DNA of 45,219 nt from a bacterium. Lineage in GTDB: Bacteria > Electryoneota > AABM5-125-24 > Hatepunaeales > Hatepunaeaceae. Made by a program: the position numbers and the translations under genes. This document shows, in pieces, positions 271-26,499 of the stretch; the stretch's first letter is position 1; each line of letters begins with the position of its first letter. The notes beneath the pieces were generated by a model, which was not told the origin of the DNA, did no database searches, and saw nothing but the letters and a program-made list of their open reading frames with translations. The stretch is from positions 1 to 45,219 of the forward strand of contig JABMRV010000113.1 of the NCBI GenBank assembly GCA_013202285.1. The letters are read 5' to 3'.

Positions 271-1398
271 ATGCAGGAAAAGCATCAGAATAAACCTCGA
301 CCTACAGAAAGAGAGCGTTTCGGCGCCGATCCGGCGGTTCGTGCCGTAAAGGTAGGATCGCTGACGATTGGCGGAGGAGCGCCGGTAATTGTCCAGTCGA
401 TGTGCTCGACCGATACACGCGACCTGCACGCAACGCTGGCTCAAACGCTGCGACTCGTTCAGGCTGGTTGTGAGATGGTGAGGGTAGCGGTTCCGGATGA
501 GAAAGCATCGGCGGTGCTGCCGGATATCGTCAGGGAAGCCGGCGTGCCGATTGTGGCTGACATACATTTTCATTACCAGCGTGCGCTTGAGGCGATTGCT
601 GCCGGTGTTGACAAGGTGCGCATTAATCCTGGTAATATCGGTTCACGCGACAGGGTGAAGGCTGTAGTCGATGCTGCCGGAGCTGCAGGTGTGCCAATTC
701 GCATCGGCGTCAACTCGGGTTCTCTGCCGGAGGATATCCTCGAACGCGATAATTACAGGGTTACTCCAGAGGGAATGGTCGATGCCGCCTCTCGCGAGGT
801 TGAGGCGCTGGAAAGAGAGGGTTTCAGGGATATCGTGGTGTCGATGAAAGCCTCCGATGTCATGACCATGGTCGAATGCAACAGGCTCTTTCGCAGCAAG
901 TGCGATATTCCGCTCCACCTCGGTGTAACCGAAGCCGGGTTGACTGGTTATGGTTCAATAAAATCGGCGATTGGAATAGGAACACTTTTGCTGGATCGTA
1001 TCGGCGAGACGATCCGGGTCTCATTGACAGCAGAGCCCGAAGAAGAAATACAGGCTGCCTGGTGGATACTTGAAGCGACCGGCGTCCGGAGACGCAGTCC
1101 TGAACTGGTTTCATGTCCCACCTGCGGAAGGGTTGAGATCGACATGATAAAACTGTCGATGGATGTGATGAAGATGCTTGAGGGTATCGAGATACCGTTT
1201 AAGATTGCTGTTATGGGGTGTGTAGTCAACGGACCGGGAGAAGCTCGCGACGCCGATATCGGGCTTGTCGGTGGCAAGGGCAAGGGTCTGATCATGCGGC
1301 GTGGTGAGATTATTAAGAGCGTCCCGGAAACTGAATTACTATCGGCATTCAAAGCCGAGCTTGAAACACTCTGCAAAGATTACAAACAGGAAGACTGA
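271..1398 (+). CDS. ispG: (E)-4-hydroxy-3-methylbut-2-enyl-diphosphate synthase (GcpE/IspG)
   Basis: Motifs IGGGAPVIVQSM, PIVADIHFHY, RINPGNIG, IRIGVNSGSL, PLHLGVTEAG, and the Fe-S ligands SCPTCGR and VMGCVVNGPGEA. Confidence 0.97.
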   Translation: MQEKHQNKPRPTERERFGADPAVRAVKVGSLTIGGGAPVIVQSMCSTDTRDLHATLAQTLRLVQAGCEMVRVAVPDEKASAVLPDIVREAGVPIVADIHFHYQRALEAIAAGVDKVRINPGNIGSRDRVKAVVDAAGAAGVPIRIGVNSGSLPEDILERDNYRVTPEGMVDAASREVEALEREGFRDIVVSMKASDVMTMVECNRLFRSKCDIPLHLGVTEAGLTGYGSIKSAIGIGTLLLDRIGETIRVSLTAEPEEEIQAAWWILEATGVRRRSPELVSCPTCGRVEIDMIKLSMDVMKMLEGIEIPFKIAVMGCVVNGPGEARDADIGLVGGKGKGLIMRRGEIIKSVPETELLSAFKAELETLCKDYKQED

Positions 1399-2300
1399 AA
1401 GTTATCCTTGATCCTCAGGGTGGAGTCTGCGGTGGTGTTCGTCGTGTCATTGAGGCGGCAGAAGAGGAACTGGCGAGAAGCAAAAACCAGGTATATATAC
1501 TGGGGGACATCATACATAATGAACGTGAAGTCGAACGGTTGAACAAAGCAGGTCTCAAAACGATCTATATCGAAGACCTCGACGATTTCGAGCCTTCATG
1601 CGAGGATGCGAGGATTCTAATCCGTGCGCATGGCGAACCTCCCGAAACGTTTAAAAAATTGGATCGGATGCCTGTTAAGGTGATTGACAGCGCCTGTCCG
1701 GTTGTGGTTAAATCACAGAATCTCGCTGATAAGTACCACCGCGAAGGCTACCAGGTCGCTATAATCGGTAAACACGGTCACCCTGAGATGATAGGAATCG
1801 TGGGGCACACCAATAAGGAAGCGGTGATCGTGCAGTATGATGAGGATGTGAAGAAATTGGAGCGCGGTAAACCCACGCTGGTCATGTCTCAGACAACGAT
1901 TTCATTGGATAAGTTCAATGAGATGACACGCAAGATTGAAGACTGGGTGGGTGAGATAATTGTCCGGAATACGATATGCAAATCGGTTATTAATAGAGGG
2001 GAAAATCTCAACAAGTTTGCCCGCCAGGTGGATGTGCTGCTGGTTGTGGGAGGACACAAATCCTCCAACACCCAGATGCTGCATGACGCCTGTAAAACTA
2101 TAAATCCACGCAGTTATCATGTCGCGACTCCCGAGGAGATCGAACTGTCATGGTTCAACAGCAGCGACCGGGTCGGCATCACCGGATCGGCTTCGACACC
2201 GCTCTGGCTGCTTGAGGAATTCGTCGAAACGCTTGAAAGATGGATTGAAACCCGACTTGCAAGCAAGTCGGGCCACCCGACAAACCACCCATTGATCTGA
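1395..2300 (+). CDS. ispH: 4-hydroxy-3-methylbut-2-enyl diphosphate reductase (LytB/IspH), probable CTG start
   Basis: Motifs LIRAHG, VIDSACPVV, IGKHGHPE, SQTT, RNTIC, VVGGHKSSNT and GITGSASTP. The frame extends 48 codons upstream of the ORF-track start (1539) to give (L/M)KVILDPQGGVCGGVRRVIE...LGDIIHNERE, the conserved IspH N-terminus with the first Fe-S Cys. It begins at CTG 1395-1397. Confidence 0.93.
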   Translation: MKVILDPQGGVCGGVRRVIEAAEEELARSKNQVYILGDIIHNEREVERLNKAGLKTIYIEDLDDFEPSCEDARILIRAHGEPPETFKKLDRMPVKVIDSACPVVVKSQNLADKYHREGYQVAIIGKHGHPEMIGIVGHTNKEAVIVQYDEDVKKLERGKPTLVMSQTTISLDKFNEMTRKIEDWVGEIIVRNTICKSVINRGENLNKFARQVDVLLVVGGHKSSNTQMLHDACKTINPRSYHVATPEEIELSWFNSSDRVGITGSASTPLWLLEEFVETLERWIETRLASKSGHPTNHPLI

Positions 2301-2308
2301 AAGAAGTA

Positions 2309-4072
2309 TCAACTGCTGTTAAACCAGATCGGTAAATCGGCAAACCGGTGTTTCATCTCATCGATGCAGTAATGTTCAAGTTCCTCGGCAGTATCAAACT
2401 CGAAAGCCTTCTCAGCGAAATCCACCGCCTCTTCATAGCTCATCGAACGGATAATCTTCTTAATCTCACCCAACGCCAGCGGACTTACGGACAGTTCATT
2501 CAGTTTCAATCCGACCAGCAGCATGGTTGCTGCCGGATTTGCCGCCATCTCACCGCACATTGCAACGTCAATACCTGCTGAATGCGCTGCCTCAACGGTT
2601 GTTTTTATCATACGGATCATGGCTGGATGAAGAGGTCTGAACAACATCCTGACCCGCTCGTTTCCACGGTCGACCGCCAGAACGAACTGAGTGAGGTCGT
2701 TGGTGCCGATGCTGAAAAAATCAACCTCCTCCGCTATGCTGTCAGCCATAACCACCGCGGAGGGCAGTTCGATCATGGCGCCGATCTCAATATCCGGATT
2801 CATTTCGACCTGTTCGGTTTCAAGTTCGCTCTTGACCTCTTCGAGCATCTCCTTTAATCGCCTGATCTCATGGACATCGGAGATCAGTGGGAACATTATT
2901 TTAGTCGGACCGGCAACGGCGGCTCTCAGCACTGCCCGCAACTGTGTTCTCAGCAGATTGGGATGGTCGAAGAAAACCCTGATCGCACGCCAGCCCATGA
3001 AGGGATTGGGTTCGGCTGGTAACGGCAGGTCGGTGAAGACCTTGTCACCGCCGAGATCGAATGTCCTGATGGTTACCGGGTGCGGAGCGACTGATTCGAT
3101 GACCTTCCGGTAATCCCGGTACTGATCCTCCTCATCGGGGATCACGTTGCGTGTGAGAAAAAGGTACTCCGACCGGAACAGACCGATCCCTTCGCCGCCG
3201 TGTTTGAGAACAGCGCCCGCTTCGCCCGGCAGCTCAATGTTTGCTTTCAGAAAAATCCGATGTCCATCGGTCGTCTCTGCCGGAAGATGCTCGATATCCG
3301 ACAGGCTCTCTAAGTATTCCTCATATCTTTTTCGTTTAACTATATAGCTTTTGGTTGTAAGCTTCTGTGGATTGAGAATTATCTTGCCGGAATTGCCATT
3401 GACAATAATTCTGTCGCCGTTTTGAACGAGAGTTGTCAATTCTCTGAGTCCAACCACCGACGGAACTTCCAGCGAACGAGTCAGGATAGCCGTGTGCGAT
3501 GTGGATCCTCCCAAATCGGCGGCGACTGCTTGAATGTTCTGGCGCAGCAGGTGGATCACATCTGACGGGAGGAGATCATCGGTAACGATTACTGCAGGAT
3601 GTTCTAACGGTCCGATTGTTACGTCTCCCTTGCCCAGGAGGTTCTTGACAATTCGATGTCCCACATCGCGGACGTCCTGTGCTTTACAGCGAAAAACTTC
3701 ATCATCCATGGCAGCGAAGGCGTCATGGAAACTGTGTGCTGTCCGATGAACAATTGCCTCTGCGTTCAGTCCATCTTTGCGTATGCCGCGTCTGATCATT
3801 CCGGTAAACTCAATATCGTCCAGCATCGCCGATTGCGCCTCAAATATCCGTGCCACAGCCTCGCCAACCAGTTTAGCCATTCTGTTGCGTAGAGCTGTTA
3901 GTTGCCGCCTGGTCTGCTTCAGACTCTCCTCAAAGCGTTCAATCTCGGACTCCAGCATTGTTTTGGTAACCGGGTATTCACGGAACTCCGGTTCATCATG
4001 CTTGAAGAGGAAGACTTCACCGATGGCGATTCCCGGCGCCGCGGGTATGCCTGTTAATGTTTTTTCTGCCAA
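2309..4072 (-). CDS. ptsI: Phosphoenolpyruvate-protein phosphotransferase (PTS enzyme I)
   Basis: GIPAAPGIAIG N-terminus, phospho-His motif GGSTSHTAILTRSL, and GIGLFRSEYLF, TIRTFDLGGDK, NPFMGWRAIR, DFFSIGTNDLTQF, MCGEMA. TTG start preceded by AGGAAGAGAG. Confidence 0.96.
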   Translation of the reverse strand: MAEKTLTGIPAAPGIAIGEVFLFKHDEPEFREYPVTKTMLESEIERFEESLKQTRRQLTALRNRMAKLVGEAVARIFEAQSAMLDDIEFTGMIRRGIRKDGLNAEAIVHRTAHSFHDAFAAMDDEVFRCKAQDVRDVGHRIVKNLLGKGDVTIGPLEHPAVIVTDDLLPSDVIHLLRQNIQAVAADLGGSTSHTAILTRSLEVPSVVGLRELTTLVQNGDRIIVNGNSGKIILNPQKLTTKSYIVKRKRYEEYLESLSDIEHLPAETTDGHRIFLKANIELPGEAGAVLKHGGEGIGLFRSEYLFLTRNVIPDEEDQYRDYRKVIESVAPHPVTIRTFDLGGDKVFTDLPLPAEPNPFMGWRAIRVFFDHPNLLRTQLRAVLRAAVAGPTKIMFPLISDVHEIRRLKEMLEEVKSELETEQVEMNPDIEIGAMIELPSAVVMADSIAEEVDFFSIGTNDLTQFVLAVDRGNERVRMLFRPLHPAMIRMIKTTVEAAHSAGIDVAMCGEMAANPAATMLLVGLKLNELSVSPLALGEIKKIIRSMSYEEAVDFAEKAFEFDTAEELEHYCIDEMKHRFADLPIWFNSS

Positions 4073-4429: not shown

Positions 4430-7400
4430 CTATTTCACCAGTACCACCTTTTTTATCCGGTTTCCATCAACACTATTCAACCCGATCAGGTACAAACCGC
4501 TCGGCAACTTTTCGGCATTCCACTGAACGCGATATGTTCCTGCATCGTATTTGCCGAAAGCCAGAATTCCCACTTCCCTGCCAGAAAGGTCGTATGTTTT
4601 TAGCGTTACCTCTCCTGGGCTTTCGATTGAGAATATAACCGTCAGACTGCTGTTGAATGGATTTGGATAGAGCGAGTTAATGCCGAATTCGACCGGAAGG
4701 GATTCCGCCTCAACCGCAGCAACTCCCCAGCCGTCGTTAATCCAGCCCTCGCCGAAACCATCAAGCCAGTGGAGGGTGAGTTCTTTGCCATTGGAGAGAC
4801 ATATAACCGGAGATTCTCCTTCGACGAGACCTTCAACTGCACCAGTGGTTGAATCGTCACCTCTGAGGGTGATTCCGCATCTGCCATCACGGTCAACCAC
4901 ACCTCGCCCGACAATAATGCCCTTGCCGTTGAAGGCTTCGAGACGAGTGCCGGGATTGAGACTCTCAGTCAGGAGGAGCAGGCTGTATGAAGAGCCGGTG
5001 CCGGGAATCTCCGACAACCAGGTAATCTCGTCATCACTGTAATAATTCAGGTAAGCCGCTCTCTCATCTCCGAGTTGATAGACAAACCTCACATCGGTGT
5101 CAACATTCACATAGTAACCGGTGCCCTCATGCATGGGGGGCATATTCGAGAAATCCCAAGCCGGGATATAAAAACCGTTTCCTCCGCTCTTGGCGATGAC
5201 GAGAGCGTCACCCAGTCCGGCGAGAGCAGTCCTCACATCTACAGCCTGTCGGGGGAGATATGATATCAAGTTCCAGCCTTCGGACAGATCGATCGGAGTA
5301 TCCCAGGGGATAACTTCGCCTTCCACCTGCAGAACACAATCCCCCGCCATCTTCATCTTGTAACCCTGCAATCCCTGCCAGGGCTGGAGGTTGTTATATC
5401 CCGTTTCGGGATGATAGAAACTGCCGAAACCGTCTTTGATTAGAATCAACAAATTTTCAGATACGAGAGGTTCCATCAACTCAGGGATGTCTTCCTCGGT
5501 AGGCTGCACGTTCAGAGAAACACTGTTCCAGCCGATTTTGAGTCTTATATTTCGCTGGGATAAACCTCCCTCACCGGTAATTGAAAGATCCACCTGTACG
5601 ACGTTCTCCCCGCCGATGCCGTCATGCGTAAAGAGCAGCTCGGCTGAGTAGTCGGTTTCCGGAAGCATTCCTTCACTGCTGAGAGTTACCGTGAACTGCT
5701 CGTGGTCGTTGGCTTCGAGGACACCCTCGACCGGATCGACTGTAATCCAATCCGTCCGTGAGGCGAGATGAAAGATCGTCAGGTGATCGGGAGACTGTAT
5801 AATGCTGACCATAACCCAGCTATACGGATCATAGCGGTTGGTGACGGATATGCCGCCGGGACGGCATTCCGCGATGAAGTCGATCTGTGCCGCAGACAGC
5901 ATCTCGCCGTTGTCGGGATTAATCTTGAATATTTCCAAATCTGTCTCATCGCCGCGTGAGAATGAATAGAGGTTGTATCCATCCGGGGCTTCGGTCCAGT
6001 ATGCCAGTCCGTATGTGCGCAGATCGCCCGGACGTGCAATCTCTGCCTGCTGGTTGCCGTTGACGTCGATGCCGATGAAATTTGAGGTGATATTCGCCGT
6101 CCAGAACAGGTTTCGATCCGGATCCCAGGTCAGATTGCGATAGGATTGTGCGTCGGTTTGCATTGACGTAATCAATTCTCCTCCGGTGGTGAAGCCATAG
6201 AGGATGCCGCTGACGTCGTCTCCGCCCCATAGCAATGTGCCGTCCCAGGTCAGGTCGCGGATGCCATAACGTGACTCGCTGAACTGCTCGAACCGGCGTT
6301 GGAGTTCGCCGTCGCTGTTAAGAACGTATATATAATTAATATTCTCACCGTTGTTACCGCCCGAAACATAGAAACAGCCATCCGCGAAAACTATGCCGTT
6401 GATAAAGGTGTCCTCAAGGAGTTCCTCAAGGTTTGTCGAATCTCTTAGCTCCCACGGCTCGGCATCGACTCCTTCAGGGAATACTCTCTCTATCGACCAT
6501 CTGAGAGGTCCATTGCCAATGTTTGAGATCTCTCGCCCGATTTCCAACCGATCATCCGGTTCAAGCGAAACTTCGATTATTCCAGGTTCGATTCTGAATT
6601 CTGAATACAGCAGGGCAAAGTCGATTGTTACGTCGGCTTCGTTCTCGATGACTACTTCGCGCTCCCACATAGGCAGGTAATCTTCGGCGGTCACCACCAG
6701 ATCGTAAGTCCAGGCGGGAATTTCGGGGAATTCATATTCACCATTTTCATCTGTTTCAGTGAAGTAACGATAATAATCGACGGTTACGACCGCGTTGGCA
6801 ACCGGCTGTTCAAACTCCGCTTCTATCACCCTTCCATGCAGTCTGCCGAAGCCCTCAACCACGAACAGCGACCACGGCAGCTCAACATACAACATATTAC
6901 GGGCATTGGATTCCAGGATGACTACACCCTCATACTCACCAAGTTCCAGCCCCTCCGTTTCCGCTGAGAATGTCAATACGCCCAATTCGCGGGGATTGAC
7001 CGTCAGCTCAGCCGGTTCAACCGACAGCCAGTTTTCCAGATCTTCTGGGATAGTCACAAAGCAGGTTACCGCATAAACGTCGTCATCCTCTTCGGTTGTG
7101 TTTGTGACCTCCAACTCGAACTCACCAGTCTGACCGGAGGCGACCGGACCGAAGTCGATGACTTCCGCAGATAGCTCAGCCTCACCACCGTAGAGCGGCG
7201 CGTCCGATTCTACCCAGCCCGGATCGGCTGCATCCTCACCGTTGTTGGCGCCAAGCCTGGCGTCGTTGCCTGTTTCGGACAGGTCTTCGACAGTCTGACC
7301 CTCGCCCTCGTCGAATCGCCAGTAGCCGATCAGACCATCTTCCTGCCCTGACAGCAGCGCGCTCATCGTGCGTCGTATATCGTCTTCGTCACGGGCATAG

Positions 7401-7948
7401 TTCCAGATGCGAACCTCTTCGATAATCCCTTCGAACCAGTCTGTGTTCACGTTGCCCAGTCTGCCGAAGAATACGTCGGTGTCATATCCCGTGATTGAGC
7501 CTTCGATCTCCGTTTCGCCTGCCAACTCGCCGTTCATATAAAGCTTTATAATCTCACCGTCATAAGTAGCGGCAAGGTGGTGCCATTCACCTAGTTCAAT
7601 CATTCCCTGGTCGGACCTCGCTGAGTTTGCATTGTTGTTGATGGTAAAGCAGATTCCCACATAACCATCCTGATGACGGTTCAGCAACCATTGATAATGA
7701 GGCGCCTGGTGAACAACATACGGTTTATTGATGATGGAGTCCCACCTGTCGCGAGCCGTTACCTGATCCGGTTTGATCCAGACTTCCAGTGTGATATGCT
7801 CGCAGTTGTAAACGTCATCTCTCGCTACAAATGTGTGATCTCCCTGATTGCCGTCCGAAACATAGTCCAAAGCATGACCGGCTTGAGCGTAGATCGCACT
7901 CGGAAGGCTGCAGAAAATAATGACAAGTAATAAAATAATTGGTTTCAT
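4430..7948 (-). CDS. Secreted multidomain protein: LamG/concanavalin-like domain, Ig-like, carboxypeptidase regulatory-like domain, beta-propeller-like insert, T9SS type-A C-terminal sorting domain
   Basis: Signal peptide MKPIILLLVIIFCSLPSAIYAQ at ATG 7948, preceded by GAGAG. LamG motifs ITLEVWIK, WHHLAATYDG..IKLYMNG, FEGIIEEVRIWN and GYWRFDEG. GRLHGRV...TDENGEY is CarboxypepD_reg-like. CTD: LYPNPFNS...YDLSGREV...LPSGLYLI...KKVVLVK. Confidence 0.85.
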   Translation of the reverse strand: MKPIILLLVIIFCSLPSAIYAQAGHALDYVSDGNQGDHTFVARDDVYNCEHITLEVWIKPDQVTARDRWDSIINKPYVVHQAPHYQWLLNRHQDGYVGICFTINNNANSARSDQGMIELGEWHHLAATYDGEIIKLYMNGELAGETEIEGSITGYDTDVFFGRLGNVNTDWFEGIIEEVRIWNYARDEDDIRRTMSALLSGQEDGLIGYWRFDEGEGQTVEDLSETGNDARLGANNGEDAADPGWVESDAPLYGGEAELSAEVIDFGPVASGQTGEFELEVTNTTEEDDDVYAVTCFVTIPEDLENWLSVEPAELTVNPRELGVLTFSAETEGLELGEYEGVVILESNARNMLYVELPWSLFVVEGFGRLHGRVIEAEFEQPVANAVVTVDYYRYFTETDENGEYEFPEIPAWTYDLVVTAEDYLPMWEREVVIENEADVTIDFALLYSEFRIEPGIIEVSLEPDDRLEIGREISNIGNGPLRWSIERVFPEGVDAEPWELRDSTNLEELLEDTFINGIVFADGCFYVSGGNNGENINYIYVLNSDGELQRRFEQFSESRYGIRDLTWDGTLLWGGDDVSGILYGFTTGGELITSMQTDAQSYRNLTWDPDRNLFWTANITSNFIGIDVNGNQQAEIARPGDLRTYGLAYWTEAPDGYNLYSFSRGDETDLEIFKINPDNGEMLSAAQIDFIAECRPGGISVTNRYDPYSWVMVSIIQSPDHLTIFHLASRTDWITVDPVEGVLEANDHEQFTVTLSSEGMLPETDYSAELLFTHDGIGGENVVQVDLSITGEGGLSQRNIRLKIGWNSVSLNVQPTEEDIPELMEPLVSENLLILIKDGFGSFYHPETGYNNLQPWQGLQGYKMKMAGDCVLQVEGEVIPWDTPIDLSEGWNLISYLPRQAVDVRTALAGLGDALVIAKSGGNGFYIPAWDFSNMPPMHEGTGYYVNVDTDVRFVYQLGDERAAYLNYYSDDEITWLSEIPGTGSSYSLLLLTESLNPGTRLEAFNGKGIIVGRGVVDRDGRCGITLRGDDSTTGAVEGLVEGESPVICLSNGKELTLHWLDGFGEGWINDGWGVAAVEAESLPVEFGINSLYPNPFNSSLTVIFSIESPGEVTLKTYDLSGREVGILAFGKYDAGTYRVQWNAEKLPSGLYLIGLNSVDGNRIKKVVLVK

Positions 7949-7996
7949 TGCTGATCTCTCTTTTTGAACAGTAGTCTGTACCCTTGTGGTGCAGGT

Positions 7997-8028
7997 TGAA
8001 AAGAATCCCGGACTACAAGAGATCCGGG
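7997..8028 (-). terminator. Putative intrinsic terminator at the end of the small-gene array
   Basis: Minus strand reads GCCCGGA-TCTCTTGTAG-TCCGGG-ATTCTTTTC. The stem overlaps the stop codon of the 80-aa ORF. Confidence 0.4.
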
Positions 8029-8255
8029 CTACGAGCTTCCATTTTTTGCCTTGCCTTAAGCTCTTGAGATGTTGTCCCATAGTATCCCTTGATGCCGCAA
8101 GATATTACAAAACCAAAGAATATAAGACCGATACCGAGGACTCCGTCCCATCCAATCTTAGGATACAGAAGGAAAAGACCTGGTGTAAAAAGAGCAGCGC
8201 CGATCATTCTTCTGATACTCTCTGGAGACTTAAACTCTGTCCAGCCGAGTTCCAT
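8013..8255 (-). CDS. Small membrane protein, 80 aa, two hydrophobic segments
   Basis: RBS CAGGAG plus the shared GAGTAA-NNA-ATG start context. Hydrophobic stretches MIGAALFTPGLFLLY and GVLGIGLIFFGFVISCGI. Confidence 0.65.
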   Translation of the reverse strand: MELGWTEFKSPESIRRMIGAALFTPGLFLLYPKIGWDGVLGIGLIFFGFVISCGIKGYYGTTSQELKARQKMEARSPDLL

Positions 8256-8281
8256 TAGTTACTCCTGTTTTTTCATGACTT

Positions 8282-8341
8282 AAGTTGATTTGAAAGCGTC
8301 CTGCACCGACTCTGAAACAGGATCAGCTCTTAGCGTTTATC
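8282..8341. repeat. Intergenic direct repeat, copy 1
   Basis: AAGTTGATTTGAAAGCGTCCT...CTGAAACAGGATCAGCT...CGTTTATC. Confidence 0.9.
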
Positions 8342-8518
8342 TCTTTTCCACATAGCATTCATTTTATAATATACTGTCAGTGCTCCAACACCACAGAGCA
8401 CACCAAGACCATAGAGAACTACTGATCCTGTTTCCCTTCCTACGGCTACAAAGACTATGCATCCGGCGGCTAGCTGGAGAATTATATAGGTTACTACAAT
8501 CATTTTAAGTAATTTCAT
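8330..8518 (-). CDS. Small membrane protein, 62 aa, two hydrophobic segments, ends DKR
   Basis: RBS GGAG in GATGGAGTAATGAATG. Segments IVVTYIILQLAAGCIVFVAV and VVLYGLGVLCGVGALTVYY. Confidence 0.7.
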   Translation of the reverse strand: MKLLKMIVVTYIILQLAAGCIVFVAVGRETGSVVLYGLGVLCGVGALTVYYKMNAMWKRDKR

Positions 8519-8533
8519 TCATTACTCCATCTC

Positions 8534-8589
8534 AAGTTGATTTGAAAGCGTCCTACACAAGCCTGAAACAGGATCAGCTATCGTTTATC
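8534..8589. repeat. Intergenic direct repeat, copy 2
   Basis: AAGTTGATTTGAAAGCGTCCT...CTGAAACAGGATCAGCT-AT-CGTTTATC, 252 bp from copy 1. Confidence 0.9.
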
Positions 8590-8793
8590 AACCGGTCTTG
8601 AATCCCATGGATTGCCATCCGAAATACACCACAGAATAAACAATCCCAATACTAATAATACAGCGAACACAACCCAACACCAAAAGAGCACATCAACAAA
8701 AGCGTCGGATACTTGTATCCCTACTATTACCATAAATAATGCGAATATAGCGAAGATTAATGCGGGCACTTTAAGCTTTTCAGGGAACTTCAT
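8578..8793 (-). CDS. Small membrane protein, 71 aa, two hydrophobic segments, ends DKR
   Basis: Start context CAGAGTAATCAATG. Segments ALIFAIFALFMVIVGI and VLFWCWVVFAVLLVLGLFILWCI. Confidence 0.7.
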   Translation of the reverse strand: MKFPEKLKVPALIFAIFALFMVIVGIQVSDAFVDVLFWCWVVFAVLLVLGLFILWCISDGNPWDSRPVDKR

Positions 8794-8809
8794 TGATTAC
8801 TCTGAATTT

Positions 8810-8860
8810 AAGTTGATTTGAAAGCGTTCTATACACGTTCTAAAGCCTCTCTGAAAAGTT
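8810..8860. repeat. Intergenic direct repeat, copy 3 (distal half diverged)
   Basis: AAGTTGATTTGAAAGCGTTCT (20/21 identical to the core), then TACAC...AAGCCT...CTGAAA, 276 bp from copy 2. Confidence 0.8.
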
Positions 8861-8907
8861 CACAATCGGGGGGGATTGGTCAAGCTTACATACTTAACAG
8901 CATTCAC

Positions 8908-11900
8908 TTACGGCTGAGCCGGTTGAGGTACATTGACAGTGAAACTGCGCGGTACATTATCGCTGTTCGATCCCCACATCACCGCACCCTGCTTGTCGGC
9001 GGCGGACAGTTTCCAGAACAGCTTACCGCCGGTGCCTATGACATCCTCGGGAACTGTGAATTCGGTTCCCTTTATATCGCGGAAAGTGCCCAGTCCGGTT
9101 GTAAAACTGGCATCGGAGGCAATAACCACAGTGTACGTAACCTCGTCGCCGGGATCGACGTCTTTCGCCTCAGTCCAGCTCAGCTTGACACTCTTGCCGT
9201 CGATCTGTGCTCCATCGGCAGGAGATGAAATTTCAAAGGCTTGCGGAGCATCATTTTGGATGTTGTGAATGAAGCTTGCCGGTGATGAAAAGACCGATTC
9301 AGCGCCTTCGTCATCGACCGCACTGACGCGCCAGTACCATACCTGGTTGTCACCTAAACCGTCGGGTGCGGTGGTTGTTACTCCGGCTCCGGTACTCAGA
9401 CCTATCACTTCATTCGCAGGAGAGAACGACCTGCTTCGTGAAATCTGTATCCTGTATGTCAGTTCATCCGACGGGTCAAACGGGTCGGGGTCGTTTGCAG
9501 CCTCCCATTTGAGGGTAACCGAAGTTACCTGTTCGTTATCGGACGGTTCAAGCAGATTTTCTATCTTATCTGGCGGGTCGTTCCGCGAGTTAAATGTAAA
9601 GCTGCGTACTTCTGCCGATGGGAGTCCTGTCGAACCATCATCATCAACCGCTTTCACCCGCCAGAACCAGGTCGTGTTGTCTTCGATATTGGTCGGCGAG
9701 GCTGTTGTTACGCTGGGTTGTGTTCTTAGCTCGACTATTTTTCCGCTGAAAGCCCTGTCTCTTGAGAATTCAACCAAGTAGGAAAGTTTATCAGGTGTGT
9801 CGGTTAAATCCAGATCCTCAGCGGGACTCCAGGCGAGCTTGACGGATGTTATTTCCGGACCATCCTCAGGTTCGAGAAGCGCGGCAACCACGCCCGGAGG
9901 ATTATTCCCGGCGTTGTAGATAAAGCCTTTGATTCCCGACACAGGACCTTCAGCGCCGTCATCATCTACTGCCCGGATGCGCCAGAACCAGTAGCTGTCA
10001 TCCTTCAAGCCATCGACATTTATACTTATGACTCCCTGACCGGTTTTGACGGTTCTTATTTCACCGGAGAAGTCCTTCTCCATGCAGAGTTCAATGGTGT
10101 AAGACAACTTTTCAGGCGGGTCGGTAAGGTCTCTATCCGGTGCGGCTGTCCACTTAAGCTCAACTGTTGCAACCTCTTCGCCTTCAACTGGTGAGGTCAT
10201 TGCAGGAACTGTGCCGGGAGCATCGTTCTGAGTGTTGAGGATGAAGCTCGTTACCGGGGAGTATTCACCTTGGACGTTTTCGTCATCTATAGCCTGTACT
10301 CGCCAGAACCAGCGGTTGTCATCTGTCAAATCGGCAGGTTCAGCAGTAACAATTCCGGCTTCAGTTGAAACCTTGATTATTTTTCCCGTGAAGCCCTTGT
10401 CAAGGGACAACTCAACTGAATACCTGAGCGATTCAGATGTGTCGAAGACATCCCGGTCAACGGCTTTTTCCCATTTCAGTGTCACCAACCTGACTTCCTG
10501 GTCAGGCGTGGGTGAAGTCAGCGCTGGAACCGCATCAGGCGGATTGTTCGCCGCGTTGTATATGAAACCGCGAATCTCGGAGACCGTCCCCGCAGCGTCG
10601 TCATCATCGACCGCTCTGACTCGCCAGAACCACCAACTGTCGTCCTTGAGACCGGTGGGGGAGACGCCGGTGACCATCGGTTCGGTTATTATCTCGGTTA
10701 TCTCACCACTGAAATCGCGGTTGAGACAGAACTCCACTCGGTAGGCAACCGCGGCGGAGTCGGTAATATCCTTATCGGAAGCCGCTTCCCAGCTCAGTAT
10801 TACGCTTGAGATCTCCTCGCCTTCGTCCGGTTTGGTGAGCCCCGGTATCTCACCCGGCGGATCGTTCCTGGAGTTAAACATGAATCCCTTGACAGGCGAC
10901 ACGGGACCTTCAGCACCTTCATCATCGGCAGCCCTGACTCTCCAGTACCAGCGGGCGTCGTCCTTCAGACCTACCGGTGAATGAGTTGTAATCCCCTGCT
11001 CGATGTTGACAGTGGCAATATCGCTCCTGAAGACGGGATCCATTGTTATCTCCAAGGTATATGCGATCCGCTGCGGAGGATCGGATATATCAACGTCGGA
11101 AGCTTCATCCCAATCCAGTGTTATGCTCGAAACCTCGATGTCATCTGCTGGTGATAGTATTCCACTGACTGCACCGGGGTTGTCATTGACCGGATTGTAG
11201 AAGAATGTCAGTTGCTCGCTCCAGTCCGATTCAATGCCATGCTCATCTATGGACTTAACGCGCCATTTGTAAATCTGGTCGTCCTGCAGATCATCTTTCC
11301 AGGTTGTTATGGGGATCGAGGTTTCCTCTATACCCTCAGCGGATACTACATCCATCGCTTCAGGTTCGAGTTTGATGCCCACCTGGATTGTGTAAGTGAT
11401 TTTATCCGTCGGATCGGGGTCAGTGGCTTGGTTCCAGATTATCACTCCGTCACTGAGCAATTCAGCTATTTCGATAGGCGGAGCAGGTTGTGGTGTCAGT
11501 GGATCAGGTATCGACGGTCTGGTGTCGAGGGTGAAACTTTCTATGACTGAAGCGGTTTCAAGCCCGGTGTTGTCAACCGCGGTTACCCTCCAGTAGTAAG
11601 TGGTATTCTCAAGAGGATATGCTGCCGTATATGTCGGATCGGTGAGATTCTCAACGACAACTGCACCGCCAAGATCGGGCGATGTTCCGTATTCAATGCG
11701 ATAGGTGATTGATGACATGAAGTCTATATCTTCCGATGCAATCCACTTGAATTCGATAGGTCCGAGGTAGTTCAACAACTCGTTCGAGGCTGGAGTTGTC
11801 AGTTGTGCAACGGTAGGAGAATCTTCGACCACGTTCACGAGGAACGGCTGCATCGGATTCCAGTCGGATACTGCCCCGTCATCATCGCGAGTTCTAACCT

Positions 11901-14900
11901 GCCAGAACCAGAGCGTGTTATCCTTCAGAGGATCGGGGACATCGAATTCGGTAATTCCCGCTCCGGTGGCGTATTCGAGCTTTGAATCCTTCTCAAACTC
12001 TTCATCGTAGTCAAGCCTGATGTCATAGACCAGTTTTTCGGGAGGATCAGTCAGGTCGATGTCCGAAGCAGCGTTCCAGTCGAGGCTTGGATTCCGGTTT
12101 CGTATTACACTGCTATCGATCGGTGCGAAAGGTCCTGCAGGTGAACCCGGTGCATCGTTTTCCCTGTTGAAACGGAAGATCACTGGTTCGCTGTAAGCGC
12201 CGTCGTAGCCATGATTATCCGTAGCGTGCACGCGGAAATAGTAATCATGATCGTCGTCAAGTTCCTCCTGTCCCGTTAGCGAACCGACGGCTGCGGTCAT
12301 GATACCTTCGGAATGCGGAAGCTCTTCCACATGAACCAGCGGGGAAGCGAATGATCTGTCCGGAGCGAGTTCAACTGTGTAAGTAAGTATATCGACCGGG
12401 TTGGGATCTGTTGCTCCGGTGAATTGCAGTGGATCGTCCGGCATCAGTTCTTCGGGCATCGGTGCGGCTGCAGGTACGGTCGGAGTGGTGTTGGTGCGGA
12501 AGCTGAATCCGGACTGAACGACAGTCTCAAGACCGGTGTTGTCAACTGCAGTGACACTCCACCGGTAGCCCAGTTCGTTCGTCAGACCTTCTTTGAAGTT
12601 GAAAAAGGTTTTCGCTGTTTTGGCGGTGAATTTCTCACCCTCATCAGGAGACAACTCAACCCTGTAGATAATGGACGATTCCCAGTCGGGATCGCTGCTG
12701 GAAGCCCAGTTGAACTTTAGAGAATCAAGTTCAACTATAAGGGAATCCTGCCGTGGGAACTGGAGCGAGAATGGTGTCGGATTATCTTCAGCGTAGTTGA
12801 CGAGTACGCTGTCAACTGTATTCCAATCGGACACTGCCTCTTCGTTGTCTCGGGTGCGGATGCGATAGTACCAGAGCAGATTGTCGTCAAGTGGAGCGAC
12901 CAGTTCGGTTCGCCCGGCTTGTGAGGTGAAAGTTCTCACTTCCCCGGTTTCAAATTCACCGAGTGTACACTGGAGATCGTAAACCAGTGTAGAGGCGGGG
13001 TCCGAGAGATCGGGATCGGAACTCTCCGTCCATCTGAACATAATGTCGGTCGTACCCATCACTGTGTCCGGAGGTGCCGTTATCGCATCGACTGCTGCGG
13101 GAGGATCATTATAGCGATTGTAGAAGAAGGAACCCTGAAGGCTGAATTCACTTGCTGCCGTGTGATTGTCCCGTGATCGGACTCGCCAGTAATAAACATG
13201 ATTATCGACAAGCGCTTCCCATCGATTCAAGCTTTCAACCGGTATAGCTATTTCCGTCCATTTTGTTATTTCAGCAGTTACTTCTACGAGTTGATCCGTT
13301 TGGTAGATCTCCACCTCGTAAAAGATCAGGTCGTCCGGATTGGGATCGCTGCTGCTTTCCCATGTTAAAAGATCGGGCGGCATCCTCTCCTCACCCGCCA
13401 TCGGAGCATCTGGAACCGGTATCGAGGGAGTGGTATCGACATAGAAATTTCCAACTGAAGACGAAACAGTTGTTCGTTCTGTGTTATCGGTTGCAATTAT
13501 TCGCCAGAAGTACTCAGTAGCATTGTCGAGGGAATCGGGGAGTGTGAAGCTCGTCGGTTCAAGGTCTGTATAAACTCTGGCATCACTGAAGGTGATTGTT
13601 TTGTCAATCTCCACTGTATAGCGTACATAAGACAGCGGATCGGGATCGATGGCGGTTTCCCATTCGATGGTGGGATGCAGGAGATAAATATCGGCTCTCT
13701 CAAGGGGATATTTCAGGTTAAACGGATCGGCGGGTTCTTCGATTGAGTTTGTCCAGAACCGGCGAAAATCGCTCCAGGGACCTTCTTCGAGCGGATCTGA
13801 AGCCTTGACGCGGAAATTATAACCGGCGTTTTCAACGAGGCTGTTCGCTATTAACAAGCTCACCTGAACGGGTGGCGCAGGTGTTCCTGCCTGCGGATCC
13901 GCTGCTGAACAGGAGGGGAGTACACCACCCTGACTGCCGACCATTTTCTCATCTTCGAGGGTGTAAACCTCAAAGCGATAGGTTAGCGAATCATCTTCTC
14001 CGTCCTGTGAAACCAGCGCGAATAACTCCGGCGTGAGCGTGGGAACGAGTTCATCGGCAGCCGGTCTATCGGGTTGTGGCACTGTCGGAAGACTGTTCAA
14101 TCGAATGAGCAGGTCGACGGTATCGCTCCAGAAACGATCATTGTTGACGTTCAACTGGGTAATGTAGCTCCTGCCGTCTTCAAGCTGAGTACCTGTGTAT
14201 ATGACCGTCTTTACTTCCGTTTGCACCTCACCCGTGTCCCATATAGGGCTGCCGGTAATCTGTCCGTCGATTGCAGAGAAAACCTTGAGTTTATAACTCA
14301 TTTGCGGTTCTTCGATAACGTCGAAGTATCTCCAGGTGAAAACAGGCACGTGGTCTATAAGGTGAAGGAGATCCGCTGGACCGGTATTATCGACGGTCAG
14401 ATCCTCCGCAAGCGGTTTTGGCGACATGGTGCGATAACGAGCTACAACATCGGGTGCAGACGGTGCAAATATCTCGACGTGACCTCCCTCGTAATCGCTG
14501 ATGGCATATTTTTCCTGATCGGTTACCTCTGCAACTCGCCCCCTGCCAATCCAGACGCCGCTGTTTTCAGCGGTCTCGCGCAGCGACATCACGATGCCGT
14601 CAGGATCGTATTCCGATGTGATCCTAACCCGGACGACATCACGAAAATAAGGATTTGAATCCAAGCCGTTGAGGCGAATCCTGAGAGGCGCTCCTTCGGC
14701 AACACCGCGCGGTATCTCGTCATAATAATAGTCGTTACGACAGAGAATTATTGAATCAACGCTGGCGGGATTAGTAGGATGCTGGGTAGGAGGCGCCCAG
14801 TAGTAAGGATCATGGTAGATGTGATGTTCTGCAGCATCGACCCGACTGTCGCGGATGATGTCTGAGAAGGAGAAACTGTTGGGATCTCCCCAGAAGTTGT

Positions 14901-16026
14901 CGGTTGCGTCGATATCCTTGTTGACATTCTGAACCCAGATCTCAACACCCGTAGATTCAAACGTATCAAAGATATTATCCTTGATTTCAGCGTCAATTCG
15001 ATTGGATAGAAAGAGTGTGTTCGATCTCTCCGGCGATCTGTTTCCAATGAAACAATTCCCGCGAATGATCAGCTTCGGAACAAGAGATGCATAAATGGCT
15101 CCGCCATGCGCCTCAGATGAGTTTCCCAGGAAACGATTTGATAGAATATCCGCGGATGCCATCGATATGTAGATGCATCCGCCGTGATCGTCTGAACTGT
15201 TGTAAATGAATGAGTTGTTCCGGAGGACGACATGTGCATTCAGGCTGACTCCGATAGCTCCACCACGGATGGCGTGGTTTTCGGTTATCAGGCAGCCGCC
15301 GATCAACGGTTTTGCCTTGGTTGAGCAACGGATAGTGCCGGTTTCTCCCGAACAATTCCGGATGGTGGAATTAATAATGATCGGATTCGAATCGGATATT
15401 TCAATTGCTGAACCGCTTTCAACCGGACCGCCCGCGTATTCAATGATACAGAATTCAAGCAGCGATACGGTCAGGGTATCCAATTGTACCGGTTCCGCCT
15501 TCTCCTCTTTGATGATGCCTTTATACTCTTTGAAATCTCCGTCCTTAGTCTCATAGAAATATACTCCATCCTGTCTCTTATAATAATCACCGATTTTGGT
15601 ATATGTGTTACCCTGTCCATCCTCGAATATCTCAGGTTCTTTGCGAATGATCTCGTCTGCCTCTTTCACAGGTTTAGACGACCAGGAACCGCGGAAATAC
15701 AGCCCGCCCCAGGCGCCTTTAGACTGTTCACCTGCCGAAGTAAAACGGATGCTGTCTTCAGGTGTGCCGCGTGCGACGAGTTTCCCCATAATAATAATCC
15801 CTGCATCTTCAGCAAAAAGGAGTTCTACCCCCGGTTCGATGGTAACAGTGGCATATCTCCCAATGGTGATGACAGATTCCAGCGCAATCGGGCTGTCGCT
15901 TAATGTCCATGTTTCATCGGCGTCTATTCTCCCGCTCATAGTAACGGCAAATGAAACAAAGGGCATCAGTATCAGTAACATTAATGAACTGATGAGGTGT
16001 GGCTTTTGTATCATTAACATCCTCAT
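8908..16026 (-). CDS. Large exported protein: right-handed parallel beta-helix (pectin lyase-like fold) followed by ~17 fibronectin type III-like repeats
   Basis: N-terminal hydrophobic signal ending PFVSFA. Beta-helix motifs TIEPGVELLF, ARGTPEDSIRFTS...WGGLYF, repeated GGAI/GGCI..N and IDATDNFWG. About 100-aa repeats of the form LxW..A.D.D....L.Y.(V/I)E...F.......L.D...W(F/Y)WRV.A.D. No T9SS type-A CTD is visible. Confidence 0.85.
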   Translation of the reverse strand: MRMLMIQKPHLISSLMLLILMPFVSFAVTMSGRIDADETWTLSDSPIALESVITIGRYATVTIEPGVELLFAEDAGIIIMGKLVARGTPEDSIRFTSAGEQSKGAWGGLYFRGSWSSKPVKEADEIIRKEPEIFEDGQGNTYTKIGDYYKRQDGVYFYETKDGDFKEYKGIIKEEKAEPVQLDTLTVSLLEFCIIEYAGGPVESGSAIEISDSNPIIINSTIRNCSGETGTIRCSTKAKPLIGGCLITENHAIRGGAIGVSLNAHVVLRNNSFIYNSSDDHGGCIYISMASADILSNRFLGNSSEAHGGAIYASLVPKLIIRGNCFIGNRSPERSNTLFLSNRIDAEIKDNIFDTFESTGVEIWVQNVNKDIDATDNFWGDPNSFSFSDIIRDSRVDAAEHHIYHDPYYWAPPTQHPTNPASVDSIILCRNDYYYDEIPRGVAEGAPLRIRLNGLDSNPYFRDVVRVRITSEYDPDGIVMSLRETAENSGVWIGRGRVAEVTDQEKYAISDYEGGHVEIFAPSAPDVVARYRTMSPKPLAEDLTVDNTGPADLLHLIDHVPVFTWRYFDVIEEPQMSYKLKVFSAIDGQITGSPIWDTGEVQTEVKTVIYTGTQLEDGRSYITQLNVNNDRFWSDTVDLLIRLNSLPTVPQPDRPAADELVPTLTPELFALVSQDGEDDSLTYRFEVYTLEDEKMVGSQGGVLPSCSAADPQAGTPAPPVQVSLLIANSLVENAGYNFRVKASDPLEEGPWSDFRRFWTNSIEEPADPFNLKYPLERADIYLLHPTIEWETAIDPDPLSYVRYTVEIDKTITFSDARVYTDLEPTSFTLPDSLDNATEYFWRIIATDNTERTTVSSSVGNFYVDTTPSIPVPDAPMAGEERMPPDLLTWESSSDPNPDDLIFYEVEIYQTDQLVEVTAEITKWTEIAIPVESLNRWEALVDNHVYYWRVRSRDNHTAASEFSLQGSFFYNRYNDPPAAVDAITAPPDTVMGTTDIMFRWTESSDPDLSDPASTLVYDLQCTLGEFETGEVRTFTSQAGRTELVAPLDDNLLWYYRIRTRDNEEAVSDWNTVDSVLVNYAEDNPTPFSLQFPRQDSLIVELDSLKFNWASSSDPDWESSIIYRVELSPDEGEKFTAKTAKTFFNFKEGLTNELGYRWSVTAVDNTGLETVVQSGFSFRTNTTPTVPAAAPMPEELMPDDPLQFTGATDPNPVDILTYTVELAPDRSFASPLVHVEELPHSEGIMTAAVGSLTGQEELDDDHDYYFRVHATDNHGYDGAYSEPVIFRFNRENDAPGSPAGPFAPIDSSVIRNRNPSLDWNAASDIDLTDPPEKLVYDIRLDYDEEFEKDSKLEYATGAGITEFDVPDPLKDNTLWFWQVRTRDDDGAVSDWNPMQPFLVNVVEDSPTVAQLTTPASNELLNYLGPIEFKWIASEDIDFMSSITYRIEYGTSPDLGGAVVVENLTDPTYTAAYPLENTTYYWRVTAVDNTGLETASVIESFTLDTRPSIPDPLTPQPAPPIEIAELLSDGVIIWNQATDPDPTDKITYTIQVGIKLEPEAMDVVSAEGIEETSIPITTWKDDLQDDQIYKWRVKSIDEHGIESDWSEQLTFFYNPVNDNPGAVSGILSPADDIEVSSITLDWDEASDVDISDPPQRIAYTLEITMDPVFRSDIATVNIEQGITTHSPVGLKDDARWYWRVRAADDEGAEGPVSPVKGFMFNSRNDPPGEIPGLTKPDEGEEISSVILSWEAASDKDITDSAAVAYRVEFCLNRDFSGEITEIITEPMVTGVSPTGLKDDSWWFWRVRAVDDDDAAGTVSEIRGFIYNAANNPPDAVPALTSPTPDQEVRLVTLKWEKAVDRDVFDTSESLRYSVELSLDKGFTGKIIKVSTEAGIVTAEPADLTDDNRWFWRVQAIDDENVQGEYSPVTSFILNTQNDAPGTVPAMTSPVEGEEVATVELKWTAAPDRDLTDPPEKLSYTIELCMEKDFSGEIRTVKTGQGVISINVDGLKDDSYWFWRIRAVDDDGAEGPVSGIKGFIYNAGNNPPGVVAALLEPEDGPEITSVKLAWSPAEDLDLTDTPDKLSYLVEFSRDRAFSGKIVELRTQPSVTTASPTNIEDNTTWFWRVKAVDDDGSTGLPSAEVRSFTFNSRNDPPDKIENLLEPSDNEQVTSVTLKWEAANDPDPFDPSDELTYRIQISRSRSFSPANEVIGLSTGAGVTTTAPDGLGDNQVWYWRVSAVDDEGAESVFSSPASFIHNIQNDAPQAFEISSPADGAQIDGKSVKLSWTEAKDVDPGDEVTYTVVIASDASFTTGLGTFRDIKGTEFTVPEDVIGTGGKLFWKLSAADKQGAVMWGSNSDNVPRSFTVNVPQPAQP
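13871..13895. repeat. REP-like hairpin inside the coding sequence
   Basis: GGTGGCGCAGGTGTTCCTGCCTGCG, translated in the host frame as PQAGTPAPP within an extra-long loop of one Fn3-like repeat. Confidence 0.5.
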
Positions 16027-23766: not shown

Positions 23767-24804
23767 ATGCCGGAGAGAATTAAAATAGGTTATGTCGGAA
23801 TCGGACGTTTTCTTCCGGAGAAGGTACTGACTAACGAGCGGCTGGCACAGTTGGTCGATACCACAGATGAATGGATTAAGCAACGTACCGGCATCAACAC
23901 GAGACGGATCATGAGTTCTGACGAATCAGTCGCATCGATGGCTATCGCGGCTGCTGAAAATGCAATTGAGAACGCTGGAATAGATATAAAGGACATCAGT
24001 TGTATTCGTGTTGGCGTCAATACTCATTTGCGCTTCCCCAGTCTGGCGGCTATTGTCCAGAACGCTCTCAGAATTCCGAATGCGAGTGCATCGGATATTT
24101 CGGCAGGATGCTCAGGTTTTATCTTCGGTGTCGAGGAGGTATTCAACCGTTTGCACTTTGAATGGATGATGTTCGGGAGGAAGTCATATAGTTTGGTTAT
24201 CGGTGTAGATGGCATGTCGCTTATAACCGACTGGTCCGACCGTAAAACATGTGTTCTATTCGGAGATGCCGCAGGTGCGGTTATTATCGGTCCCGTTCAA
24301 TCGGGTGAGATTCTCGCAACCCATACGAGAACTCAAGGCGAGTATGCCGATCTGTTAAAGCTTGATGCGTTTCTCGAAGTACCTGCGGAGAATCATAAAG
24401 AGCTGACTTTTAAGAAGTTCTCCTTAATCGATTATCCCTTCCTGTCCATGGAAGGTCCCAAGGTGTTTGTGGTTGCCGTCAGATCGATGGTTTCAGAGAT
24501 TAAAACGGTATTGCTGAATTATAACAAGATCAACGGCACGGATCTAACGGAAAAAGACATCGAATACGTTTACCCTCATCAGGCTAACATGCGTATAATT
24601 TTAGCGATAGCTGATTCGCTGAAGATACCTCATGAACGTGTTTATTCGGACGGAGTAAAGAATTATGGGAACACATCTACCGCTTCCATACCTGTCGCTT
24701 ATGTTGACAAGTGGGGCATGAATCCTGATGCGCTGGTAATTGATGTTTCTTTCGGTTCGGGATTTGCATCGGGGGCGATTCTGCGAAAGACAGCATCAAA
24801 ATAA
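23767..24804 (+). CDS. fabH: 3-oxoacyl-ACP synthase III (FabH family)
   Basis: VDTTDEWIKQRTGI; catalytic triad contexts ISAGCSGF (Cys), YPHQANMRII (His) and YGNTSTASIP (Asn); TCVLFGDAAGAV. RBS GGAG. Confidence 0.9.
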   Translation: MPERIKIGYVGIGRFLPEKVLTNERLAQLVDTTDEWIKQRTGINTRRIMSSDESVASMAIAAAENAIENAGIDIKDISCIRVGVNTHLRFPSLAAIVQNALRIPNASASDISAGCSGFIFGVEEVFNRLHFEWMMFGRKSYSLVIGVDGMSLITDWSDRKTCVLFGDAAGAVIIGPVQSGEILATHTRTQGEYADLLKLDAFLEVPAENHKELTFKKFSLIDYPFLSMEGPKVFVVAVRSMVSEIKTVLLNYNKINGTDLTEKDIEYVYPHQANMRIILAIADSLKIPHERVYSDGVKNYGNTSTASIPVAYVDKWGMNPDALVIDVSFGSGFASGAILRKTASK

Positions 24805-24809
24805 AAGAG

Positions 24810-24898
24810 TTCAAAATCCAAAATCCTCATAAAACCTGTCATTATTAATTCAAAATCCAAAATTTCCATAAAGCCTGTCATTACTAATCCAAAATCCA
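24810..24898. repeat. 39-bp tandem repeat, ~2.3 copies, containing TCCAAAA heptamers
   Basis: TTCAAAATCCAAAATCCTCATAAAACCTGTCATTATTAA / TTCAAAATCCAAAATTTCCATAAAGCCTGTCATTACTAA / TCCAAAATCCA. Confidence 0.85.
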
Positions 24899-24916
24899 CT
24901 CTTTCAACGTGATTCG

Positions 24917-24940
24917 CTGGCAGACACCATTGTCTGCCAG
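24917..24940. other. Perfect 10-bp stem-loop between fabH and the MATE gene (REP-like or processing/terminator hairpin)
   Basis: CTGGCAGACA-CCAT-TGTCTGCCAG. No U-tract on the + strand. Confidence 0.5.
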
Positions 24941-25014
24941 AAATGGATGTGTCCGACGGGGCGTCTGACACCGGGAATATGTACACCAGAAACAACTGCG
25001 AGACCTCATAACTG

Positions 25015-26358
25015 ATGCGTTTATTGTTACGAAGAGACCTCTCCGGGGATGTATGGAAACTCGCTGGACCAATCGTTCTTGGCATGATTTCCCAGACGCT
25101 GATGAACGTGATCGACACGGCGATGGTGGGTCGTCTCGGAGCTGTTGCTCTGGCAGCGACTGGCTTGGGCGGGCTGTTGTCGTGGATGATTCTCGGTTCG
25201 CTGGGCGGTCTGAACATCGGTGTCCAGACGGTAACTGCGAGGCGATTCGGTGAAGGGAACAACCGGGAAGCAGGAAAAGTACTCGATAACGGGCTCCTGA
25301 TAGCTCTGATAATCGGCACTGTCTGCACTCTCTTTATCTCTCACGGAATGAGCGGTCTGTTTAGGATTTTCTCTGATGACCGCGCAGTGGTAGCCGCTGG
25401 AAGCGGATATATTTACTATCGACTTCTCAGCGGGCTGCCGTTCATGATTATCACCGCTCAGCGAGGCTTTTTCAACGGCATAAGCAGGACAAGGCTGCAT
25501 ATGCTGGTCGTACTGGTCAGCAATGTTCTCAATGTGATCCTGAATTACCTGCTGATTTTCGGTAAATTCGGTCTGCCCAGGATGGAAGCTCCCGGCGCAG
25601 GACTGGCAACTACACTTGCGAACGTCGTTGGCTGCCTCCTGTTTATTTATATATCAACGAGACAACACAGGCGCAAACTGTTCGGATATTATAATCCCTC
25701 CAATCTCGACTTGAATGTTTGCCGCGGAATAATCCGTCTGGCAGTACCGTCAGGGCTTCAGGTACTCCTTGCCATGACCGGTTATGCCGCTTTCAACGCC
25801 TTTATTGCCAGGATCGGCACGATTGAGCTTGCCACGACAAACGTCTGCATTACCGTCTGGTCGCTCGCTTTCCTTCCAGGAGCGGGATTGGGGATATCCG
25901 CAGCGAGTCTGATCGGTCAGAAGCTCGGTGAAGGATTACCGGACAGGGCTGAAGAATTCGGCTGGGAATCGGCTCGCCTGGGTATCCTGACAATGGGGGC
26001 AATCGGACTGATGTTCATTATCATACCCGAACAGATATTCCGTATATTCACCGATGATTCTGCAGTGATTGCAGCAGGCAGGATTCCGCTGAGGATACTG
26101 GGCTGCATACAGATATTCGATGCGACCGGCATGGTTCTCAGCCAGGCGCTGCAGGGCGCTGGCATGAACCGTTGGGTGCTGATGGCTGAGGTGGTCGTGA
26201 ACTGGGGCTTCTTCATCCCCGGTACATTTCTGGTGGTTTTCGTCTTTAAACTCGGTCTCAACGCCGCTTGGGCAGTACTCGCGGTGTACCTGATAATTTT
26301 CGGATTGGTGGTGACGATGAAGTTTGCAGGTGGGAAATGGAAAGAAGTGAAGGTGTGA
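25015..26358 (+). CDS. MATE family efflux transporter
   Basis: 447 aa with about 12 TM segments. Motifs LAGPIVLGMISQTLMNVIDTAMVGRLGAVALAA, NVILNYLLIFGKFGLPRMEAPGAGLAT, LIGQKLGEG, and a C-terminal KFAGGKWK. Confidence 0.93.
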   Translation: MRLLLRRDLSGDVWKLAGPIVLGMISQTLMNVIDTAMVGRLGAVALAATGLGGLLSWMILGSLGGLNIGVQTVTARRFGEGNNREAGKVLDNGLLIALIIGTVCTLFISHGMSGLFRIFSDDRAVVAAGSGYIYYRLLSGLPFMIITAQRGFFNGISRTRLHMLVVLVSNVLNVILNYLLIFGKFGLPRMEAPGAGLATTLANVVGCLLFIYISTRQHRRKLFGYYNPSNLDLNVCRGIIRLAVPSGLQVLLAMTGYAAFNAFIARIGTIELATTNVCITVWSLAFLPGAGLGISAASLIGQKLGEGLPDRAEEFGWESARLGILTMGAIGLMFIIIPEQIFRIFTDDSAVIAAGRIPLRILGCIQIFDATGMVLSQALQGAGMNRWVLMAEVVVNWGFFIPGTFLVVFVFKLGLNAAWAVLAVYLIIFGLVVTMKFAGGKWKEVKV

Positions 26359-26428: not shown

Positions 26429-26499
26429 TAAGTTTAGGTAATATGTAGACTTTGTCTACTCGTCTGAAAACGGAACAGGATAGTCTCAGGGAGGCTTTG

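Follow-up and report, generated by a model that had tools for sequence, protein, structure and literature searches.

Three small genes behind copies of a shared repeat

The window, a 45,219-nt contig of the bacterial genome G000 (3.0 Mb in 261 contigs, 92% complete), carries three co-oriented small genes on its minus strand: A (8578..8793, 71 aa), B (8330..8518, 62 aa) and C (8013..8255, 80 aa), with the lengths given in the preliminary description of this DNA. Upstream lies the gene for a 2372-aa fibronectin-III/Ig repeat protein (8908..16026, minus strand) and downstream that for a LamG/carboxypeptidase-regulatory/C-terminal sorting-domain protein (4430..7948, minus strand). All three small proteins are gene-called in public collections, A as a singleton. 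A and B contain two hydrophobic stretches each, predicted helices in A, and C contains one weak and one clear stretch. No homologues of A or B were found, and both are orphans. The AlphaFold model of C is a helical hairpin with a tail helix (mean pLDDT 60.5), and the ESM Atlas has no match at or above 0.9 for this protein. The three genes most likely encode small envelope accessory proteins that are exported or sit in the inner membrane. PADLOC, NCBIfam and PHROG contain no match that would give A–C the toxin, immunity or decoy role suggested earlier. An origin of the ORFs from the antisense strand of a transposase was rejected, as it gave no signal.

Each gene is preceded by a copy of the same repeat. 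Copy r1 (8794..8840, minus strand) consists of a degenerate IS1182-type terminal repeat (8840-8824), an invariant 15-mer (8824-8810) and the leader and RBS of gene A. Copy r2 (8519..8579, minus strand) opens with a 17-nt tail block (8579-8563), followed by an IS-end-like core (8564-8548), the 15-mer (8548-8534) and the gene B leader. The order is the same in r3 (8256..8328, minus strand), with the tail block at 8328-8312, the core at 8312-8296, the 15-mer at 8296-8282 and a longer leader before gene C. The 21-nt core present three times in the window, the 17-nt block common to both inner junctions, the start context GAGTAA-NNA-ATG and the DKR protein ends were all found as described, and three or more exact copies of an 18-mer occurred in 0 of 1000 dinucleotide shuffles. 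The array is also AT-rich, as claimed (GC 0.409 versus 0.484 genome-wide; 142 of 3415 genome windows are equally low). Contigs from a second sample of the same study cover positions 8005-8691 and 8667-9100 with 0 differences; the array is therefore no assembly artefact.

The earlier statement that the repeat frames every gene does not hold for gene C. No copy lies behind C, and a GTAG-type REP doublet (7970..8034, minus strand) is instead inserted into the end of this gene, where it supplies the last residues and the stop codon. The doublet occurs at least seven more times in the genome, in full or in part, and it is missing at the end of C in relative P0004 and in a contig of run X3. Immediately outside r1, a 14-nt stretch on the plus strand (8844..8857) resembles by eye the terminal repeat of the IS1182-type MITEs that abound in this genome and is directed away from the array. 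There is no tRNA gene in the window, and the repeat has no link to any tRNA.

A second locus and the relationships of the cargo genes

Outside the window, a fourth copy, r4, precedes gene D on contig C162 (C162:9270-9749). Behind D lies r5, a half copy that lacks the right half and has the same orientation as r4. Genome scans give a total of five copies at two loci; profile scans of the genome found no sixth copy and genome scans no inverted one. Further arrays had been named in advance as support for the cassette idea: r4 and r5 on C162 are further copies, but the repeat is absent from 15 genomes of the family (scanned at 3 mismatches), and its left part is absent from 78 other genomes of the phylum (pattern search). 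Scanned for exact patterns, the metagenome, genome and viral collections returned 3, 4 and 0 stretches, and other patterns 5 and 2, with no further likeness in the flanks examined. Plasmids matched neither the repeat nor gene D.

Gene D encodes a 159-aa MoxZ-domain protein (PF27243) unrelated to A–C, so that the cargo of the repeat is heterogeneous. Its family is patchy, being present in 4 of 79 phylum genomes, with 94 relatives mostly on short contigs. The closest genome relative, in G013 (75%), lies at a different location without the repeat; viral contigs gave no match. None of A–D matches a family of immunity genes. The D protein has a lipoprotein-like N-terminus before a MoxZ domain, in a lineage far from methylotrophs.

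Both repeat loci look like lineage-specific insertions when compared with relatives, all of which belong to other genera. In G006 the LamG orthologue directly follows the fibronectin gene with only REP-like repeats in between and the small genes absent. Among eight relatives compared downstream of the fibronectin gene, G006 has the LamG gene and the others have other genes, and the small ORFs occur in none. The D locus could be followed in 10 of the 15 relatives: rny directly precedes the amidohydrolase gene in six, another gene stands between them in three and the neighbour differs in one, and gene D is at this site in none of the 10. A full IS1182-type MITE lies ~70 nt ahead of r4.

Gene C belongs to a small family with 10 matches, two of which are long repetitive proteins. 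Two paralogues lie on contig C122 and orthologues occur in 2 of 15 family genomes, all of them located between tRNA-Glu and ychF, and none with the repeat. The listed differences between C and its counterparts in other runs amount to 6 silent and 3 changed codons in X3 and 2 silent and 2 changed codons in X4. A 151-nt contig of X3 carries r1 and the start of A with 10 differences; of the seven listed, assessed by hand, five bring r1 closer to r2/r3 and one makes a silent change in A. Matches of 35 nt to gene B, in X4 and X5, were left out of the evidence. The tRNA-Glu locus on C122 (L020, C122:7269-8833) is a second site of small-gene variation: an AT-rich 266-aa gene and two C-family copies follow the tRNA gene, as against a single copy in G006 and G010.

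The three genes had been called unrelated, which does not hold for A and B at the DNA level. Their DNA alignment beats 114-118 of 118 hydrophobic AT-rich decoys under four scoring schemes, and with the ends trimmed the similarity remains at p 0.03 (codon shuffle) in an alignment that includes frame-breaking gaps, though the proteins are dissimilar (p 0.6-0.99). C resembles neither A nor B (p 0.06-0.26). The sequences thus make A and B look like old duplicates, C like a member of a small chromosomal family and the repeat like an IS1182-type end, three points that go beyond the preliminary description. Its idea of a constant frame around a varying insert gains from the same signal standing before the unrelated gene D. 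Clear paralogy of all three peptides, which had been named as evidence against that idea, was not seen: A and B are similar in DNA only, and C is separate. The array as a whole could have arisen by tandem triplication, long ago, of a single small membrane gene whose copies diverged fast in their coding sequence, a proposal that would account for the A/B similarity and their shared tail. We consider it very improbable: homology does not extend across all the genes, since C forms its own family and the unrelated D carries the same leader. Triplication is largely refuted for C and D and is at most valid for A and B.

Conservation of the repeat and its likeness to IS1182 ends

Every copy is directed into a gene or has the same direct orientation, and the full copies r1-r4 lie 15-40 nt ahead of a start codon. 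Conservation peaks at the 15-mer rather than at the terminal repeat: none of 20,000 column permutations reaches an invariant run of 15 nt in r1-r4. The 15-mer looks constrained in the way a selected regulatory leader, as previously proposed, would be. One could therefore read the repeat as an operator or promoter element with an RBS, the leader of a small envelope regulon that spread by duplication or gene conversion, with the IS likeness due to chance or ancient. Conservation centred on the 15-mer, and the position of the four full copies before start codons, are what such a leader predicts. Yet the repeats hold no sigma-70-like site (3 in the region versus 2.1 expected) and are missing from the 15 family genomes, r5 lacks the 15-mer and is still the best IS-end match, and both loci are insertions. 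We judge a regulon origin to be quite unlikely.

The copies differ in a polar manner. The tail is absent from the first copies, r1 and r4, and the right half from r5, and the inner copies carry both; r2, r3 and r5, all three behind a cargo gene, have 8 identical letters directly 5' of the core. The left flank matches the core no better than shuffles in any of the five copies. There is thus no inverted partner end, and therefore no unit is a complete transposon. A head-to-head IRR/IRL junction was not significant, and an inverted 13-mer within gene B is taken as chance, being reached by 48 of 1000 shuffles. Folding of the repeat (10 folds, z -0.04 to 1.35 versus shuffles) gave no significant hairpin, and no Rfam family matches it apart from a single chance match at E 10. 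Comparison by eye with the dif and IHF consensus sequences showed a poor fit, and both identities were rejected.

The first 17 bases of the repeat resemble the terminal inverted repeat of the IS1182 family. A profile of 15 ends from 8 IS1182 elements outside the genome ranks r5 3rd, r1 125th, r3 405th, r4 508th and r2 704th among 618,368 non-coding positions, ranks that are optimistic because the end type was picked after its likeness to the repeat had been seen and other ends (L108, L110) were excluded, as were those of G024/G000. Many of the profile's top 25 positions are ends of the genome's own IS1182-type MITEs. In a less selected test with 8 outside ends, taken from annotated plasmid copies (NCBIfam NF033551), r5 matches 10 of 12 positions, as do 0.017% of positions, and r1-r4 match 7-8 of 12 (1-5%). 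The terminal repeat is thus present, strong in r5 and weak to moderate in r1-r4; r2-r4 are weak singly as IS ends, and no copy is independent of the others.

The 15 bases that follow agree with the inner right end of the IS1182 that the genome itself carries on contig C241. After the four copies, a right-half profile finds its best non-coding match in the inner right end of this element, a few bases inside a terminal repeat that opens with the same 7 letters as r5, letters that lie outside the profile. Among 5000 non-coding windows, the match of r1 to this end is equalled by one, namely the IS end itself, and by none of 2000 shuffles; for r3, r2 and r4, 19, 84 and 167 of 5000 windows are as good. 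The inner-end feature is therefore present and best in r1, and r5 is without it (no alignment, 2275 of 5000 windows as good).

The genome contains ~100 IS1182-type end motifs, 88 of them non-coding, and one partial IS1182 transposase gene, that on C241, whose end type differs from the repeat. No cognate transposase with the same end was found: no IS in G000 or at seven IS1182-like loci of the family ends in exactly this way, and a pattern search of 78 other phylum genomes gave none; assemblies of this kind often lack IS elements. Of the genome's 102 other IS1182-type ends, only one has an ORF behind it, which appears to be spurious. Hundreds of non-coding repeat segments occur in G000, many being REP doublets with IS1182-type ends at their borders (e.g. 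C123:10801-11211 and C162:9850-9990), and 635 segments of nested REP/MITE-like repeats, some coding repeats among them, form one linked cluster. A 120-bp family of the genome has 9-10-letter words in common with the repeat, with r2, r3 and r5 at 1-8% of background. Repeats of a 120-150-bp family with an internal short tandem repeat (C44:7003-7141, C71:5490-5622, C250:16584-16707 and five more) often lie at contig ends, twice stand beside AT-rich foreign-looking genes and have one copy in G010.

Proposed origin of the repeat-gene units

The reading that we favor, at a probability of roughly 55%, is that the repeat is a decayed IS1182-family end attached to small genes, that these "IS end + gene" units were partly duplicated in tandem and that the 15-mer was kept as a leader. 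The repeat would consist of the 17-nt terminal repeat and ~20 nt of the IS1182 inner right end, reading inward and fused to an RBS. An IS1182-type element or its non-autonomous derivatives may have carried single small genes (C, D and an ancestor of A and B) as one-ended units to hot spots between genes, much as TnSha1 or mobile insertion cassettes do. One unit would then have been duplicated in tandem to give A and B, which would explain why both carry the tail and end in DKR. The terminal repeat would have eroded and the 15-mer stayed unchanged, which suggests that the units are probably immobile now and that the 15-mer, with the RBS, probably serves as part of the genes' expression leader.

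The likeness to IS1182-family elements and MITEs lies in a GAGGCTGTGT-type terminal repeat and in an inner right-end block as in the genome's own IS1182, and the repeats occupy gaps crowded with IS1182-type MITEs and REPs. Unlike these elements, the units have no transposase and no second inverted end, enclose a small gene with its own RBS and stand in direct orientation. The accessible part of PMC4923244 describes a gene moved by one IS1272, a member of the IS1182 family, together with an IR-like end upstream, and insertion into hairpins. This element, TnSha1 (sh-fabI), resembles the units in its IR-like end directed into the passenger, but it keeps the IS downstream, whereas the units are without an IS and are stacked. 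In mobile insertion cassettes (MIC231 and mic-qnrD), as far as the accessible text of PMC3913671 describes them, the passenger also takes the place of the transposase and the end is IS-derived, but the passenger lies between two inverted repeats, a trait that the units here lack. The literature searched, which comprised neither subscription papers nor ISfinder, yielded no description of this arrangement. Two observations fit the favored reading poorly. The direct orientation of r5 behind D is not neatly explained by one-ended capture, and the coding DNA of A and B is far more diverged than the junctions of these genes, a difference not expected from plain duplication.

The polarity of r1/r4 versus r5 and the 8 letters behind the cargo genes would be better explained by direct-repeat integration. 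In such a small cassette system, circle-forming cassettes (core, leader, gene and tail) would integrate at a copy of the core, a site that may derive from an IS1182 end and be acted on in trans by a transposase or recombinase. A miniature system without an integrase would then have taken over IS1182 terminal repeats as its direct-repeat joints, capturing single small envelope genes, giving each a common leader and stacking them, which we think doubtful. Read through such joints, the window would hold a three-cassette array and C162 a single cassette with both joints, an equally doubtful assignment. The heterogeneous cargo with its patchy D family is in keeping with cassettes, as is another X3 contig on which C keeps the final part of the leader and the upstream sequence is different (a raw count of 10 of 16 letters agrees with the genome's MITE ends). 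Against this, the five copies are confined to two loci and no closing copy lies behind C, contigs of four runs contain neither joints nor excised forms, the repeat has no significant fold, and relatives of D and C in other genomes lack the repeat. The accessible part of PMC5678879 describes a tandemly duplicated IS1272 end and no circular form, which counts against circles in the IS1182 family. Circle-based integration therefore appears unlikely to us, and the cassette turnover by recombination that had been proposed is not borne out.

The array shares with integrons and CALINs, and with rAID-1 as outlined in the accessible part of 10.1101/471110, its co-oriented small AT-rich genes with a direct repeat between them, but unlike rAID-1 as described there it has no linked XerD-like recombinase and no immunity homology. 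Integron attC sites form a folded single-strand hairpin with RYYYAAC/GTTRRRY boxes. The earlier view that this is not an integron stands: the array comprises only 3+1 genes, the repeat folds into no attC-like hairpin and shows no such boxes by eye, and no IntI exceeds the cut-off in the 92% complete genome (TIGR02249 stays below it). Linkage to a recombinase, looked for as support of a cassette array, was not found. The only two tyrosine recombinases of the genome lie on C101 and C191, and two large serine recombinase genes (C145:1658-2092 and C87:2922-3377, frames of 612 and 522 aa) are likewise away from the array contig; G000 has no IS110 and no reverse transcriptase. At C256:10273-10599 and C7:10991-11209 there are two genes for Y1 (RAYT-like) transposases, with palindromic repeats on their flanks.

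The array is thus real and non-random and is partly explained by a known transposon family. We regard it as a small set of locally acquired genes, not as an established integron-like system. If the favored reading is true, it offers a compact case of an insertion-sequence end kept as the common leader of newly acquired small membrane genes, and a way for orphan microproteins to acquire signals for their expression. Were the cassette system real, a common DDE transposase family would be tied to integron-like gene stacking. The reach of either is narrow because the evidence so far comes from a single genome, with its five copies, and from partial contigs of other runs.

Elsewhere in the window, an open frame of at least 6256 aa (26452-45219, plus strand) runs off the window end and, together with the 2372-aa gene and a 2329-aa gene, forms a cluster of giant secreted-looking proteins. 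The segments 271-4072 and 23767-26358 contain housekeeping neighbours, with ispG, ispH and PTS enzyme I, and a FabH-like gene and a MATE transporter between giant genes.
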